In this document: one piece after another, positions 52,590-57,431 of the stretch
Numbering within the stretch: position 1 is the stretch's first letter
Layout: each line of letters starts with the position of its first letter
Source of the DNA: Spirochaetia bacterium
GTDB taxonomy: Bacteria; Spirochaetota; Spirochaetia; UBA9216
Reading direction: 5' to 3'
DNA length: 64,000 bases
Assembly: GCA_963675665.1 (NCBI GenBank)
Contig: OY776510.1
Span: forward strand, 4,832,001 to 4,896,000
The notes under the pieces: model-generated
What the model saw: only the letters and a program-made list of their open reading frames with translations
Database searches by the model: none
What the model was told of the DNA's origin: nothing
Translations under genes and position numbers: made by a program

Positions 52590-53594
52590 CTATTTGATTC
52601 TTGATTCTGTCCGCCATGGATCAGCATTTGTTCCAAGGATCTTTTTTACAGAACTGGTGGCGTTTTCAAGTTTTTCTGCTAATTCATCAGAGATTGTTAC
52701 TGCCATTGCTTCGGCATTTCTCAGCATCTGGCCAGGATTCCTGGCACCTGCTATAACTGCTGTAACTTCAGGTTTGTGAAGTAACCAGGATATCGCCGCA
52801 TCTCCCAATGAGATATCACTTTCTTTACAAATCACTCTTAAATCATCCAGAGCCTTAAATACTTCAAGCTCACAACCGGGTTCGTCATGAACAGTCCCGG
52901 GACGATCTTTTGAATAGAATCTAAGCCTTGCACGTTCTTCACTGACATCTTCCGGTTTGCTGAATTTGCCGGTAAGCAGCCCCTGTGCAAGCGGGCTGTA
53001 TGCAAGAATTCCAATCTGATTCTTCCTGCAGCATGCAGCTATCTCATATTCTACTGCCCTGAAGAGCAGACTGTAACATAACTGATTGGAGACTATTTCA
53101 GTAGATTCAATAGCTTCGGAAAGCTGACTACAACCGTGATTACAAACACCAATAGCACGTACCTTTCCTGCTGTTTTCAGTTGCTCCATCATTTTCAGGG
53201 TTTCTTCAATAGAGATCTCCGGATTAAGCCAATGCGTCTGCAATAAATCAATATAGTCAGTCTTCAGGCGCCTGAGAGACCCTTCGACAGCTTCAGTTAC
53301 CCCGGCAGCCGACATATGAGTGGTCCATATCTTGGTGGCAATAACTGCATTATTTCTTCGGCCTTCAAGTCCTTTACCTAAAACCTCTTCTGAATATCCT
53401 TCAGAATAGAATTCGGCAGTATCAAAAGTATTAATCCCGCAATCTATTGCTGCGCTGATTGTGTCAATTGATTCTTTCTCCTCCTGAGCACCCCAGGTAT
53501 ATCCGCCGCCTATTCCCCAACATCCCATGATGATGGGTGATACTTTTACATCGCTGTTGCCGAGCTTGATTAATCCATTCTTTATTGTCTTCAT
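52590..53594 (-). CDS. Aldo/keto reductase
   Basis: GCWGIGG, FDTAEFY, ATK, SLRRLKTDYIDL, YSPLAQGLLTGK. Confidence 0.93.
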   Translation of the reverse strand: MKTIKNGLIKLGNSDVKVSPIIMGCWGIGGGYTWGAQEEKESIDTISAAIDCGINTFDTAEFYSEGYSEEVLGKGLEGRRNNAVIATKIWTTHMSAAGVTEAVEGSLRRLKTDYIDLLQTHWLNPEISIEETLKMMEQLKTAGKVRAIGVCNHGCSQLSEAIESTEIVSNQLCYSLLFRAVEYEIAACCRKNQIGILAYSPLAQGLLTGKFSKPEDVSEERARLRFYSKDRPGTVHDEPGCELEVFKALDDLRVICKESDISLGDAAISWLLHKPEVTAVIAGARNPGQMLRNAEAMAVTISDELAEKLENATSSVKKILGTNADPWRTESRIK

Positions 53595-53655
53595 TTATTC
53601 TCCTATAAAAAGTCAACCACAAGCTAAAAATATAAGCTTATGATCTGGTCGGATA

Positions 53656-54768
53656 TCAACCGACCATTACAGCTTCCCATGCTGCTGCCTGCATTTCCCT
53701 GTATTCTTTTCTAAAAGCCATTTTCATCGGATCAAACGGCTCTCTGGTTTTTAAAATTGTATATACCAAAGTGCTCATCTTGCGGGCGGCAGCTATTACA
53801 CTCTTACCCGAGCCTTTCTGCTTCTTCATCGCTGCATACTTCGTCATTATTCGGTACGTCCCGGTCTTCTTTTGCATACGAACCATTCCCATCACCATCT
53901 GTACGAAGGCTGTCCTCAGTTCTACAGGCCCACGCTTTGTTATATGTCCATGATGTATTGTCATATTTGAGTTCTGCACCCATGGCACAAGCCCGGCGTT
54001 TGCTGCATATTTCTTCGCACTATCATATCTGCCGATATCGTCTGTATAGGCTCTTACTGTTGCTGCTGTTATTAGACCCACGCCTGGTATTGTCTGCAGA
54101 AGCTCAACATCTTCATCGTCCTCCACAAGCTCAGCCAAAACCTTTTCAAGCTGCTTGACTTGCGATGCCTGATTATCTATCATATCCAGTAACGGTATTA
54201 CCGTTTTGGCAGCGCTTCCGTAAAAGTCGTGGTCCTCGAGACCGTTCAGGATTCGCTGCCTTTCTTTTTTACTCTGCAGCTGTCCGCGTTTGGTCTCTAT
54301 TCCATAACCAAGTAATAAGCCATGCACCTGGTTCTTTAACGACACAACAGATTTTACCAGTATCGACCTGGATTTCAGCACCCTTCGAATATCCTCACTC
54401 TCTTGGGAACATAATATCGATTCAGGCAGCATGTCTTTCTCAAGAAACTCCGCCAGGGTGCGTGCATCATGTTTGTCTGTCTTTTTTACAGATTCATTCA
54501 CTACCTTGAATTTCAAAGTATTCACTACAACCACTTCGACTCCAGCCTTTAACAGTTTATTGCGGAAATAACGGGCATTCCCGGTTGTTTCCACCGCTGC
54601 TCTCAACTCATATTCCTCTTCACAATATTCATCCAGCATTTTCAGAAATGCTCCATAACCATTTCCGCTGGTCGGATACATTCCCAATTGATCAATTTTT
54701 CGGTCTTCACTTAAAAGGCATACTGTAAACTGCGTTTTGTGAAGATCCACGCCAATACTCATCTTCAT
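53656..54768 (-). CDS. IS110 family transposase/recombinase
   Basis: GVDLHK, VETTG, KTDKHDA, TIPGVG, GLVP...NS, A.ARK. Confidence 0.95.
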   Translation of the reverse strand: MKMSIGVDLHKTQFTVCLLSEDRKIDQLGMYPTSGNGYGAFLKMLDEYCEEEYELRAAVETTGNARYFRNKLLKAGVEVVVVNTLKFKVVNESVKKTDKHDARTLAEFLEKDMLPESILCSQESEDIRRVLKSRSILVKSVVSLKNQVHGLLLGYGIETKRGQLQSKKERQRILNGLEDHDFYGSAAKTVIPLLDMIDNQASQVKQLEKVLAELVEDDEDVELLQTIPGVGLITAATVRAYTDDIGRYDSAKKYAANAGLVPWVQNSNMTIHHGHITKRGPVELRTAFVQMVMGMVRMQKKTGTYRIMTKYAAMKKQKGSGKSVIAAARKMSTLVYTILKTREPFDPMKMAFRKEYREMQAAAWEAVMVG

Positions 54769-54803
54769 GTTCTATCTCCAATAGTTTGAAGCAGTGCCTA
54801 TAC

Positions 54804-54956
54804 GGTGAATTGTTCCATTCTCCTATCCGGTCTCGCAGACCATTGAATGTTTCGGTTACGGCTCTTCAATCTCCTAAACGGTCTCGCGGACCAGTAAAAA
54901 TGTCGAACAGTAACCTTACTGCCTCAATTAAAGTTAAGGCAGTATATCAATTCACC
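54804..54956 (-). ncRNA. Putative bridge RNA (IS110 guide RNA)
   Basis: Closing stem 54804-54812/54948-54956; 5' hairpin 54917-54944; two isomorphic loops around GGTC-N5-GACC whose flanks match the target and donor junctions. Confidence 0.8.
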
Positions 54957-54988
54957 AGCTCATGAAGACTTTTTATCATTCCTCCTAA

Positions 54989-55726
54989 TTAGTCAAACAG
55001 CAATCCGCCATTTAAATCTATAATTTCTCCGGTAATAAATCCGGATAATTCGTCCGCAAGAAATCTTACGACATGAGCGAATTCTTCCGGTTCACAAAAT
55101 CTGTGTACCGGTATTTTATTCAGAACCTGTTGCTTTTCTTCCTCAGTCAACTGCTCTGTAACCATTGGGGTTTTTATATATGCCGGTGAAATACCGTTTA
55201 CAGTAATTCCTTCGCCGGCAAGTTCCGCAGCTAATGAAAAAGTCAGCGAAGAAACACCTCCCTTGGAAGTTGAATAAGCTGTTCCGGCAGTTATTCCACC
55301 GCTCTTGGCGGCAAGTGAAGATGTATTTATTATTCTTCCCCACCCTTTTCTTTTCATTCCCGGTATTACAGCTTTTGCTGTAAAGAACATTCCGTTAAGA
55401 TTGATATTAATAACCTGCTCCCATTCTGAAACTTCTGTCGTCTGAGATTTGTTTTTTGACAGGATCCCGGCATTATTCACAAGAATATCAATGTCCCCCC
55501 ATTTCTTTTCAATAAATTGTACAGCTTCATCAACATCAGCGGCGTTGCTTACATCGAACGCTACAGCCATAGTTTTCCCGTTATAATCGGCGGCCAGTGC
55601 ATCCAGCTTCCGCTGATCGATATCCGCCATTACTACGCGACAACCTTCATTGACTAACATCTCCGTCACCGCCTTTCCCATAATTCCGGCTGCTCCTGTA
55701 ACCAGTGCCGTTTTGTCTCCAATCAT
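54989..55726 (-). CDS. SDR family oxidoreductase (FabG-like)
   Basis: TGAAGIMG, NNAG, YSTSK, FITGE. Confidence 0.9.
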   Translation of the reverse strand: MIGDKTALVTGAAGIMGKAVTEMLVNEGCRVVMADIDQRKLDALAADYNGKTMAVAFDVSNAADVDEAVQFIEKKWGDIDILVNNAGILSKNKSQTTEVSEWEQVININLNGMFFTAKAVIPGMKRKGWGRIINTSSLAAKSGGITAGTAYSTSKGGVSSLTFSLAAELAGEGITVNGISPAYIKTPMVTEQLTEEEKQQVLNKIPVHRFCEPEEFAHVVRFLADELSGFITGEIIDLNGGLLFD

Positions 55727-55744
55727 CCTGATTCCTCCGTTTCG

Positions 55745-56518
55745 TCAGGCTGCTGTCCAGCCGCCGTCTACATATAAAATCTGTCCTGTTATAAACTCTG
55801 CACAAGGTGAGCAAAGGAAGGCAACCGCAGATGCTATATCGCAAAGCTCAGCAAGCCTTTTTTTTGGGATTCTTCCAAGTACCCACTCTCGACTCTTCGA
55901 ATCATCAAGTATTGATTTATTCATCATGGTTGCGGCAAATGTAGGTGCAACTGCATTAACCGATATGTTTTCCTCTGCCCATTCAATTGCAAGAGATTTG
56001 GTCATCATGTTAACCGCCCCTTTACTCGGTGCATATGCCATATCACCTGCACGTCCCTGTAAACCCCGTACCGATGAAAAATTTACAATTCTGCCCTTTT
56101 TTCGCTCGAGCATTATCCTGCCGGCCTGCTGACACATTAGAAAGGTACCTTTAAGATTTACATTCATGACAAAATCCCATTTCTCTTCCGGAAAACTTAC
56201 CGAGGGTTCCAGATGAGAGACTCCGGCACAGTTTACAAGATTATCTATGCAACCATATTTATCAGCAGCGGCATCTATACATGCTGCAGCATCAACTTTT
56301 CTGGTGATATCACATACGACCGGAAAAACCTCAATTCCTTCAGATTTCAACTTTTCTTCTGCGAGCTTCAGTGCATTCCTGTTCAAATCCACAATAACTA
56401 TCCTGCTGCCGAGCCCGCCAAGAGCCATTGCTGTTTCCAAACCCAGACCACCCCCACCTCCCGTAATTACGGAAACTGTATTTTCTATTCCATACATGTC
56501 TTTAAGATTATATTCCAT
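55745..56518 (-). CDS. SDR, gluconate 5-dehydrogenase/KduD-like
   Basis: TGGGGGLG, NCAG, YAPSK, LAIEWA, VDGG; start after GGAG. Confidence 0.82.
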   Translation of the reverse strand: MEYNLKDMYGIENTVSVITGGGGGLGLETAMALGGLGSRIVIVDLNRNALKLAEEKLKSEGIEVFPVVCDITRKVDAAACIDAAADKYGCIDNLVNCAGVSHLEPSVSFPEEKWDFVMNVNLKGTFLMCQQAGRIMLERKKGRIVNFSSVRGLQGRAGDMAYAPSKGAVNMMTKSLAIEWAEENISVNAVAPTFAATMMNKSILDDSKSREWVLGRIPKKRLAELCDIASAVAFLCSPCAEFITGQILYVDGGWTAA

Positions 56519-56529
56519 ATTTAGCTCCA

Positions 56530-56570
56530 TGTTTGATATTTAGAATACATTTAAATTTTCTATATGTCAA
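56530..56570 (-). promoter_or_regulatory. sigma70 promoter with overlapping putative IclR operator
   Basis: TTGACA-17-TATTCT; TATTCTAAATATCAAACA. Confidence 0.78.
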
Positions 56571-56654
56571 TAGTGATTTTATATTTAGATTATTCGTTGC
56601 CTTATCCTGAAAAATGAGGGATAATAGTGATACAAATTTTTCAAGGAGTTCTCA

Positions 56655-57431
56655 ATGTCCGAAAGCAAATATAACGTACCTAATCTTGAGCGAGCCCTTA
56701 AAATGATAGAATTCCTATCAAAGCAACCTAAATCTTTCGGGATTTCCGAAATAGCCGATCACCTTTCTTATCCCAAAAACAGCGTATTCAGAATTCTTAA
56801 AACTCTGGTAAACCAGGGATATATGATTGAAAACAGCAATCAGTATCAGCTCAGTACAAAATTTCTGGCTGTAGGTTACAACGCACTCGGAGAATCCAAT
56901 CTCACGGGTAAAGCAACTGATTCGATGATAGAACTTCGTAATGAATCTCATGAAACAGTAATATTGGGAAAGATTACAGGTTCTGAAGGTGTTGTTCTTG
57001 ATGTTATTCTTAGTGATGAGCCGGTAAAATTCGTTATTGATGTCGGTCATCATTTTAAATTACATACTTCAGCCCCCGGAAAAGCCATACTTGCTTATAC
57101 CGCAGAAGAAGAACGGCATAAAATCATCGAGGGAATAGATTTTATTGTATATAACGAAAATACGATAAAAGACCGTTTTCAATTTGAAGAAGAATTAAAA
57201 AGGGTCAGGGAAAAAGGATACGGAGTAGATCAGGGCGAAAAAATAATCGGTCTGCATTGTCTGGCCGCACCTATATTTAATTACCAGAAACAGCCTATCG
57301 CCGCCATATGGATAACCGGACCGTCTTTCCGAATGCCTGTTGAGCGTTTTGATGAGTACGGTGCAATGGTTAAAAAGTATGCATACCGGATTTCCTCGCA
57401 GTTTGGTTATGATCAGGTGATTCATGAATAA
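56655..57431 (+). CDS. IclR family transcriptional regulator
   Basis: VP.LERAL..., K.SVFRIL.TL, H.SAPGKA.LA, C.AAPIF. Confidence 0.93.
   Translation: MSESKYNVPNLERALKMIEFLSKQPKSFGISEIADHLSYPKNSVFRILKTLVNQGYMIENSNQYQLSTKFLAVGYNALGESNLTGKATDSMIELRNESHETVILGKITGSEGVVLDVILSDEPVKFVIDVGHHFKLHTSAPGKAILAYTAEEERHKIIEGIDFIVYNENTIKDRFQFEEELKRVREKGYGVDQGEKIIGLHCLAAPIFNYQKQPIAAIWITGPSFRMPVERFDEYGAMVKKYAYRISSQFGYDQVIHE

Follow-up and report, generated by a model that had tools for sequence, protein, structure and literature searches.

The stretch of DNA analysed here (the window, 64,000 nucleotides (nt)) covers positions 4,832,001 to 4,896,000 of contig OY776510.1 (assembly GCA_963675665.1) from a Spirochaetia bacterium, whose genome of 5.15 Mb is assembled in one contig. 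On the minus strand of the window, an insertion sequence of the IS110 family with a length of 1382 bp (53600..54981) is located between the Shine-Dalgarno (SD) sequence and the start codon of an aldo/keto reductase gene. In the original prediction, which was made from the sequence of the window alone, a bridge RNA programmed for SD sequences was assigned to the non-coding end of this element. The copies of the element in the genome and its homologues support this interpretation, and the probability that an active IS110-family insertion sequence with bridge-RNA-guided recombination, programmed for translation-initiation regions, is present is estimated at about 85%.

The left junction, read on the minus strand, lies between TAATTAGGAG and GAATGATAAAAAGTC, with the host AGGAG at 54986-54982 and the first G of the element at 54981. 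The right junction lies between GACTTTTTATAGGAG and AATAAATG, with ATAGGAG at 53606-53600 and an ATG at 53594-53592, which is the start codon of the 334-amino-acid (aa) aldo/keto reductase (PF00248; coding sequence 52590..53594). The gene upstream of the element encodes a short-chain dehydrogenase with the stop codon TAA at 54991-54989. Since this gene ends directly before TTAGGAG, the empty site of TTAGGAG, AATAA and ATG lies within an operon-like gene pair, which agrees with the predicted ribosome binding site (RBS) inside an operon. All junctions, motifs and coordinates of the prediction could be verified in the sequence. The boundaries are ambiguous by the shared AGGAG, as 53600-53604 at the right end are identical to 54982-54986 in the left flank.

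The element starts with GAATG-ATAAAAAGTC and ends with GACTTTTTAT-AGGAG. These ends form a subterminal inverted repeat of 10 bp without mismatch, and 5 nt lie beyond it on either side. A -10-like TAAAAA (54975-54970), preceded by TG at 54978-54977, is located inside the left repeat. The non-coding ends comprise 213 nt on the left side (upstream of the transposase gene) and 55 nt on the right side (downstream).

Transposase and predicted guide RNA

The 370-aa protein encoded by the element matches the Pfam families PF01548 (DEDD_Tnp_IS110, E = 9e-18) and PF02371 (Transposase_20, E = 1e-17), both above the gathering scores, and the NCBIfam model NF033542 'IS110 family RNA-guided transposase' with 216.8 bits at a cut-off of 140. 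The solved transposase chains of IS621 and ISCro4 match it at E of about 1e-15. In the alignment with ISCro4 (9t56: IGiDvsK / cmE / TDavDA / yeSgs), the residues D8, E60, D98, D101 and S267, which are found in the motifs IGvD, avE, TDkhDA and as the serine in VQNSN, are aligned with D, E, D, D and S. The N-terminal stretch of this alignment is weak (7.8 bits), and S267 is a candidate for the catalytic serine. By these matches, the protein is an IS110-family DEDD/Ser RNA-guided transposase.

Two equally spaced loops, a 5′ hairpin and a 9-bp closing stem had been predicted for the left end, and this layout is borne out by the parse of the sequence, by the minimum free energy (MFE) fold and by covariation. 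Loop 1 consists of TTTTT (54900-54896), ACT, GGTCCGCGAGACC, GT and TTAGGAG (54877-54871), and loop 2 of CATTC (54849-54845), AAT, GGTCTGCGAGACC, GG and ATAGGAG (54826-54820), resulting in a common spacing of 5-3-13-2-7. The 192-nt RNA has an MFE of -58.7 kcal/mol, compared with -41.6 ± 3.6 for shuffled sequences (z = -4.8), and none of 200 shuffles was as low. The MFE fold includes the closing stem, the 5′ hairpin and both inner hairpins. All of these, as well as the outer stem of loop 1, are supported by an alignment of 27 left ends, in which compensatory changes with both sides altered occur in 22 of 37 pairs. In this alignment 87% of the cells are paired, compared with 22-45% when the partners are slid, and none of 500 shuffles attained any of five covariation measures.

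The closing stem surrounds all other parts and the donor guides in loop 2 are therefore the junction strands of a four-way multiloop. A closure of loop 2 by an RNA-RNA stem CATTC/GAATG, as found in the MFE fold, was rejected, since the middle of its 3′ side varies freely (AATGG, ATTGG, AGTGG, ACTGG) and its 5′ side tracks the DNA. A scan of 53400-55200 with Rfam 15 at E ≤ 1 resulted in no relevant match and only in a chance match to an avian hepatitis B virus element.

Insertion sites and guide/flank covariation

In total, 15 copies of the element with 99.7-100% identity and identical ends are located in the genome. Their left flanks are all of the form [AT][AT]AGGAG (nine ATAGGAG, four TTAGGAG, one AAAGGAG and one TAAGGAG), and all copies end with ATAGGAG. 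Left flank and right end have only AGGAG in common, and there is no target duplication beyond it. Each copy is followed by the ATG of an open reading frame (ORF) of 93-729 aa, after 6 nt in twelve cases, 5 nt in two and 7 nt in one, and in all 15 cases the transposase gene and the gene downstream have the same orientation. The right flanks as such are diverse. Copies at non-SD sites, which were named in the prediction as a refuting outcome, did not occur, as all 15 are placed between AGGAG and ATG. After removal of the copies in silico, the genome contains 1600 heptamers of the form found in the left flanks, of which 416 are located at RBS-like places (4-9 nt before a start codon that opens an ORF with 80 aa or more) and 1184 elsewhere. 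Under random choice of a heptamer, RBS-like sites for 15 of 15 copies would be obtained with p = 1.7e-9.

The word depth in the contigs of the sequencing runs X1-X3 was analyzed for 53450-55150; it is about 16 times higher in the element than in its flanks, which is in line with 15 copies (a depth is not a copy number).

Furthermore, about 17 miniature elements of 100-160 bp were found in the genome, none of them within the window. They share their first bases (GAATGATAAAA) with the full element, have a similar right end (TTTTATAGGAG) and contain a hairpin of the CCGCATCCATGCGG type (e.g., G000:C1:2291895-2292010 (L016) and 3764688-3764802 (L017)). Like the full copies, they are placed between an SD-like word and a spacer with ATG. 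One locus carries a tandem triplet (minus-strand offsets 2170287, 2170388 and 2170489 in the genome without the insertion sequence). An intact miniature element directly precedes three of the 15 full copies, and remnants are found before others. A further match of 222 bp in the pattern search for miniature elements looks spurious.

For the comparison with relatives, one genome per species was scanned, which resulted in 80 loci with 32-79% protein identity. Their record titles include Spirochaetia, Treponema, Leptospira, Syntrophales, Desulfobacterales, Dehalococcoidales, Dysgonomonadaceae, Gracilibacteria, Clostridia, Victivallales and Lentisphaeria. Of these loci, 63 were parsed, and 17 Lentisphaeria/Victivallales/Clostridia loci (L078-L089, L092-L096), in which the RNA is longer and spaced differently, were viewed by eye only. 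Eight of the 63 were dropped as truncated or unparsed (L044, L045, L052, L068, L073, L076, L077, L090), and 28 families remain, this genome included.

The 3′ guide of loop 1 (the target guide) was compared with the left flank at 62 sites in 26 families, which belong to several phyla; 39 of the sites agree at 7/7, 21 at 6/7 and two at 5/7 positions. At the variable positions -7..-5 a score of 69.7/78 was reached, compared with a permuted mean of 50.8 (0/20000 permutations as high). The guide AAAGGAG of a Syntrophales metagenome-assembled genome (MAG) is found as flank in 8/9 cases, ACAGGAG of an Oceanispirochaeta MAG in 8/10 and TAAGGAG of Marispirochaeta in 5/6. Single loci have the guide/flank pairs CAAGGAG/CAAGGAG, GAAGGAG/GAAGGAG and, in Leptospira, TTGAGAG/TTTAGAG. 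Together with TTAGGAG, the variants AAAGGAG, ACAGGAG, TAAGGAG, CAAGGAG and GAAGGAG are tracked by their left flanks.

The 5′ guide of loop 2 (the donor guide) pairs with the first 5 nt of the element at 132/140 positions (permuted mean 113.6; 0/20000 as high), with the pairs CATTC/GAATG, CATAC/GTATG, CGTGC/GCACG and CATGC/GCATG. One or two mismatches occur in six families, two of these at contig ends. The loop-2 3′ guide and the right end match as ATAGGAG; they cannot covary because both are invariant in the parsed families. The two checks named in the original prediction, whether guides covary with flanks and whether insertion sites of copies and homologues are RBSs, were in its favour: the covariation is visible in the loop-1 3′ and loop-2 5′ guides, and among the right flanks of related elements in other genomes an ATG starts 4-12 nt past the terminal AGGAG in 45 of 49 cases (exceptions L027, L049, L072 and L090). 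The right end TTGACTTTTTATAGGAG or a near variant of it is present in almost all loci that reach the right end. The distant Lentisphaeria type has the ends ATGGTATGATAAATAG and TTTTATCATAGGAG. Among its 11 displayed loci, judged by eye, the left end is intact in nine, each after GGAG or AGAG, and an ATG follows 5-9 nt past the right end in ten.

By eye, the second linker base before the 3′ guide showed no consistent relation to position -8. Of the two bases after each 3′ guide (handshake), also inspected by eye, the first is always A and the second has no obvious relation to the other partner.

Three relatives deviate in their non-coding parts. Downstream of the transposase gene of L046, there are two occurrences of the right-end motif GACTTTTTATAGGAG at a distance of 15 nt, as if the end had been duplicated in tandem or a second element had left a remnant. 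In the upstream non-coding region of L074, the loop-1 3′ guide is duplicated (GTGAAGGAGACCGTGAAGGAG). L068, compared with L069 from the same Treponemataceae MAG, is without the 5′ hairpin and the whole target loop, whereas donor loop, gene and right end are retained; this natural target-loop deletion is still located after AAGGAG.

Table 1. Features of the element and its target site in the window.
Feature	Position	Strand	Evidence
Whole insertion sequence	53600..54981	-	15 copies of 1382 bp, 99.7-100% identity, same ends
Left target half: host SD sequence TTAGGAG, same as loop-1 3′ guide	54982..54988	-	Sequence, 15 copies, covariation
First 5 nt of element, GAATG, complement of loop-2 5′ guide CATTC	54977..54981	-	Covaries, 28 families
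Left subterminal inverted repeat ATAAAAAGTC	54967..54976	-	Element positions 5-11 invariant in 27 aligned families
Structured core of predicted bridge RNA	54804..54956	-	MFE fold, covariation
Closing stem, 9 bp, GGTGAATTG/CAATTCACC	5′ strand 54956-54948, 3′ strand 54812-54804	-	MFE fold
5′ hairpin	54943-54918	-	MFE fold, covariation
Loop-1 (target) 5′ guide CATTTTTAC, nearly invariant CAT	54894..54902	-	Suggestive only
Loop-1 inner hairpin GGTCCGCGAGACC	54880..54892	-	100% paired in 27 sequences, compensatory changes
Loop-1 (target) 3′ guide TTAGGAG	54871..54877	-	Covaries with left flank, 26 families
Loop-2 (donor) 5′ guide CATTC	54845..54849	-	Covaries with element start
Loop-2 inner hairpin GGTCTGCGAGACC	54829..54841	-	100% paired, compensatory changes
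Loop-2 (donor) 3′ guide ATAGGAG, same as right end of element	54820..54826	-	Invariant in all parsed families, hence no covariation possible
Transposase/recombinase gene, 370 aa	53656..54768	-	PF01548 and PF02371; NF033542
Right subterminal inverted repeat GACTTTTTAT (53614-53605) and overlapping -35-like TTGACT (53616-53611)	53605..53616	-	TTGACTTTTTATAGGAG or near variant ends almost all relatives
Right end ATAGGAG, rebuilds SD sequence before host spacer	53600..53606	-	15/15 copies; related loci
Right target half: host spacer AATAA and ATG of aldo/keto reductase gene	53592..53599	-	Sequence, Pfam

In the surrounding region (52590-57431), a divergent gene for an IclR-type regulator is followed by two genes for short-chain dehydrogenases and by that for the aldo/keto reductase. 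The element separates this last gene from the regulator and dehydrogenase genes. At the left end of the element, an ORF of 10 codons (ATG ATA AAA ... TGA; 54947-54979, minus strand) begins 2 nt after the left-over host SD sequence; its ATG is not kept in families whose left end begins with GCACG.

Proposed mechanism and alternative explanations

The 213-nt left end is proposed to encode an RNA that would fold into a four-way junction of closing stem, 5′ hairpin, target loop and donor loop and would act in a complex with the transposase. In the donor loop, the 3′ guide AUAGGAG matches the right end and the 5′ guide CAUUC would pair with the first five bases of the element. Together, both donor guides may read the joined ends of an excised circle, for which the junction TTTTTATAGGAG followed by GAATGATAAAAAG is predicted. 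In the target loop, the 3′ guide UUAGGAG matches the host SD sequence, and spacer (A-rich) and ATG are the probable pairing partners of the 5′ guide CAUUUUUAC. Recombination would take place within the shared AGGAG, and by analogy with IS621 the exact crossover is expected at the core AG (CT on the other strand). Insertions lie 5-7 nt before the start codon and are co-oriented with the gene, and the right end of the element provides a new AGGAG at native spacing.

The joined ends of the circle would also form a promoter of TTGACT, 17 nt and TG-n-TAAAAA, which would fit the junction promoter described for IS621. TTGACT is located 11 nt from the right end and TG-n-TAAAAA at left-end positions 4-12, giving the spacer of 17 nt if joined, and both are conserved in relatives. 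No terminator-like site was found on the sense strand within the element, and therefore operon transcripts could read through to the downstream gene. The donor end had been predicted to restore AGGAG, and the rebuilt SD sequence is indeed present at native spacing; the downstream gene may stay translatable.

For the right half of the target, the prediction was based on the match of the guide TTTTT to the spacer AATAA. This 4/5 match is weak alone, with the spacers of this genome being A/T-rich anyway, and does not establish the guide. A pairing of the nearly invariant CAT and the bases after it with the start codon and the preceding spacer accounts better for the signal, and a modest covariation was obtained when the comparison was anchored at the start codon. 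The complementarity between the bases after CAT and the bases before ATG is 48.6, compared with 38.8 ± 3.2 for permuted pairs (p = 0.0016), and peaks at shift 0 only (other shifts z ≤ 1.6). In the 27-sequence alignment, the CAT with which the 5′ strand of loop 1 begins has a conservation of 90% or more, and L072, the one family without CAT, is also without a nearby ATG. The reverse complement of the 9-nt guide CATTTTTAC reads GTAAAA plus ATG, and a tally by eye of the twelve 6-nt spacers gives the consensus ATAAAA. Compared with 401 unoccupied RBS sites, the occupied sites have a spacing of 6 nt more often (12/15 versus 35%, p = 5e-4) and more A at +1..+5 (mean 3.0 versus 2.09, Mann-Whitney p = 0.003), and their start codon is ATG in 15/15 cases versus 81% in the background. 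From these sequence comparisons, the chances that the loop-1 5′ guide reads the start codon and the preceding spacer are considered to be even.

Several observations weigh against the programming of the element for translation-initiation regions as proposed here. The signal obtained with the start codon as anchor is modest and comes from one of several tests, after others had failed; it could partly be due to a base composition that guide and host have in common. With the junction as anchor, the 10 nt that precede the inner hairpin in the 5′ strand of loop 1 did not covary with the right flank in 23 families. Among the public sequencing runs, none of RNA is listed for this organism. In addition, the 5′ guides are without the core dinucleotide that IS621 has in all four guides: the positions before the inner hairpin vary on the 5′ strand (AC, AA, AT, GC, GA, TA, TT and others) without a fixed core, and both 3′ guides end with AG. 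Since the bases at both positions preceding the linker T differ from family to family, the core is not covered by the 5′ guides. Purifying selection against intragenic insertions must also contribute to the 15/15 RBS-like sites, and nine of the 15 left flanks carry ATAGGAG, the sequence of the donor guide and not TTAGGAG of the target guide. In the contigs of four runs of the same organism, which break at the element ends, neither an empty site nor a circle junction was found. Moreover, no orthologous empty site was obtained from the 30 relatives searched, in which the DNA of the reductase gene was not found save for a chance match of 30 nt. A single apparent joint of the ends in the run contigs turned out to be a miniature element located elsewhere in the genome and was discarded.

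The absence of junction-anchored covariation and the diversity of the right flanks would be expected if the RNA specified only a short AGGAG-containing word, with the 5′ strand of loop 1 being structural and not a guide and the location between SD sequence and start codon resulting from later selection. The 1184 of 1600 matching heptamers outside RBS-like places, where many insertions would be gene-disrupting, also speak for this explanation. However, if an intact RBS were all that is selected for, the spacing would not be narrowed to 6 nt to the extent observed, and neither the nearly invariant CAT, with L072 lacking CAT and a nearby ATG alike, nor the complementarity that peaks at shift 0 only would follow from it. 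It is rated as unlikely, although it has more weight than the other alternatives. Slightly less likely is the explanation that the preference for TTTTTATAGGAG sites is largely due to 'half-match' recombination, in which the donor loop and not the target loop reads donor-like half-sites, namely right ends that belong to miniature elements or to other copies. At least three of the nine ATAGGAG flanks are right ends of miniature elements, and the T content at -12..-8 is 3.53 at occupied sites and 1.88 in the background (p = 5e-5). The bias towards ATAGGAG and T-rich left flanks arises in large part because copies follow miniature elements or their remnants. Donor-like half-sites may alternatively attract insertion, as is reported for half-match events of IS621. 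On the other hand, TATAGGAG (9/52) and TTTAGGAG (3/22) are used about equally per available RBS site, and the flanks in other families track the target guide and not ATAGGAG.

The AGGAG loops could also be SD mimics that regulate transposase translation or titrate ribosomes, with the protein alone picking the target. A consensus SD sequence is indeed found in single-stranded segments of both loops, directly upstream of the transposase gene, but a mimic need not track the non-SD positions -7..-5, as loop 1 does, or the first 5 nt of the element, as loop 2 does, and the layout equals that of the solved IS621 loops. This explanation is regarded as very improbable. The proposed programming for translation-initiation regions can be extended to a more detailed scheme, in which the target guides would read both hallmarks of a translation start and the element would be an SD-regenerating homing element that is carried in sense orientation by the transcription of host operons, follows an IS900-like RNA logic with the body inverted relative to the recombination site and mobilises the miniature elements in trans. 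These are without RNA and gene and would therefore need to be moved in trans. The detailed scheme is given slightly less than even odds, and under it the natural reprogramming of the loop-1 3′ guide is confined to the three bases upstream of GGAG.

Comparison with IS900/IS901, IS621 and IS1111

The element is a bridge-RNA element of the IS110 family and not a new kind, and the targeting of SD sequence and start codon by IS110-family elements is not new either. Its precedent are IS900 and IS901 of Mycobacterium avium, which insert between SD sequence and start codon (Doran 1997 and Inglis 2003, cited in PMC2942039). The same location is found for 15/15 own copies and 45/49 related right flanks. 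IS900, which was assigned to the IS110 family in a genome study from 2021 (PMC8141618), has the target motif CATGNNNNNNTCTCCTT (CATGN6TCTCCTT). This motif holds an SD complement and CATG, i.e., the same two landmarks as proposed here. Since it is the complement of SD sequence, spacer and CATG, IS900 would be antisense to the host gene if the motif is given in transposase orientation. In this case the host RBS would be in line with the hed ORF of IS900, which is encoded opposite to the transposase. In contrast to such an arrangement, the element described here is co-oriented with the downstream gene and the SD sequence is regenerated. By the rules of IS621, the RNA of IS900 would carry guides of the form 5′-CATG... 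and ...AAGGAGA-3′, which would be the same logic with the body flipped.

In the literature searches, which did not extend to supplements and subscription journals, neither a publication on SD targeting by the guide of a bridge or seek RNA nor a bridge RNA analysis of IS900 was found, and the main text of Durrant et al. (2024) does not mention ribosome, Shine or RBS. Four aspects appear to be undescribed: an RNA as the basis of SD targeting, including its natural series of reprogrammed guides; a start codon that may be read as well; an end by which the SD sequence is regenerated, in a widespread and co-oriented clade of mixed IS110/IS1111 architecture; and the miniature derivatives. Landing between RBS and start codon has been reported for some elements of the IS110 family since 1997, and an RNA guide is a directly testable explanation for it, with at least six guide variants and matching flanks as a natural reprogramming series. 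As the target of the recombinase is a class of site located before a large share of genes, the finding bears on how such elements can spread with little harm to the host. Furthermore, the element is a natural engineering scaffold by which cargo is placed exactly between SD sequence and start codon.

With IS621 the element shares a DEDD/Ser recombinase of the same Pfam architecture, a long left non-coding end upstream of the gene, and an RNA that comprises a 5′ hairpin and two loops, a small inner hairpin in either loop being flanked by two guide segments. Scarless insertion at a shared core is a further common feature, and a promoter split over the joined ends may be another. In IS621, the order is a left guide at nt 50-58 (identical to the top strand, with the CT core), the inner hairpin, a G-U linker, the right guide and two handshake bases, and the right guide has up to 7 nt and ends with AG, with the right target guide (RTG) at 77-80 (Durrant et al., 2024, PMC11208160; Hiraizumi et al., 2024, PMC11208158). 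The 3′ strands of the element likewise consist of a G-N linker, a 7-nt guide ending with AG and 2 nt (GT-TTAGGAG-AT and GG-ATAGGAG-AA). In contrast to IS621, the order of the guides is reversed, as the strand-identical 'left' guide is the 3′ guide here and the 5′ guide in IS621. The 3′ strands match the left side of target and donor relative to the gene, and therefore the recombination site is inverted relative to the body of the element, and the core would be CT on the antisense strand. The donor guides are located in a four-way multiloop here and in the internal loop of a separate stem in IS621, the subterminal inverted repeat has 10 bp instead of 2-3 bp, and the target is an SD/start-codon region instead of a REP element.

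For the IS1111 group, the seekRNA elements such as ISEc11, ISKpn4 and ISPa11 (Siddiquee et al., 2024, PMC11187229) were compared. The subterminal inverted repeats of this group have 7-17 bp (Durrant et al., 2024, PMC11208160), usually 11-13 bp, and carry terminal extensions of 7 bp on the left and 3 bp on the right side (Siddiquee et al., 2024, PMC11187229). The perfect 10-bp repeat GACTTTTTAT/ATAAAAAGTC is inside the former range and one base below the usual one. In the joined ends the repeats are separated by 10 bp (AGGAGGAATG), corresponding to extensions of 7 and 3 bp; with the AG core assigned to the left end, this sequence would split into AGG and AGGAATG. As in IS1111, the complement of the top strand is located 5′ of the complement of the bottom strand, and the donor-binding bases are found in a multiloop, which is described for many IS1111 orthologues (Durrant et al., 2024, PMC11208160). 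Unlike in IS1111, where the non-coding region is located downstream of the gene, the longer non-coding region is upstream here (213 nt versus 55 nt downstream), and the target class differs. ISMtsp17 is a similar exception with respect to the position of this region (PMC11187229). Judged from its sequence, the element is thus of mixed architecture, with an IS110-like location of the RNA and IS1111-like ends and guide order, and this combination bears on the relation of both groups.

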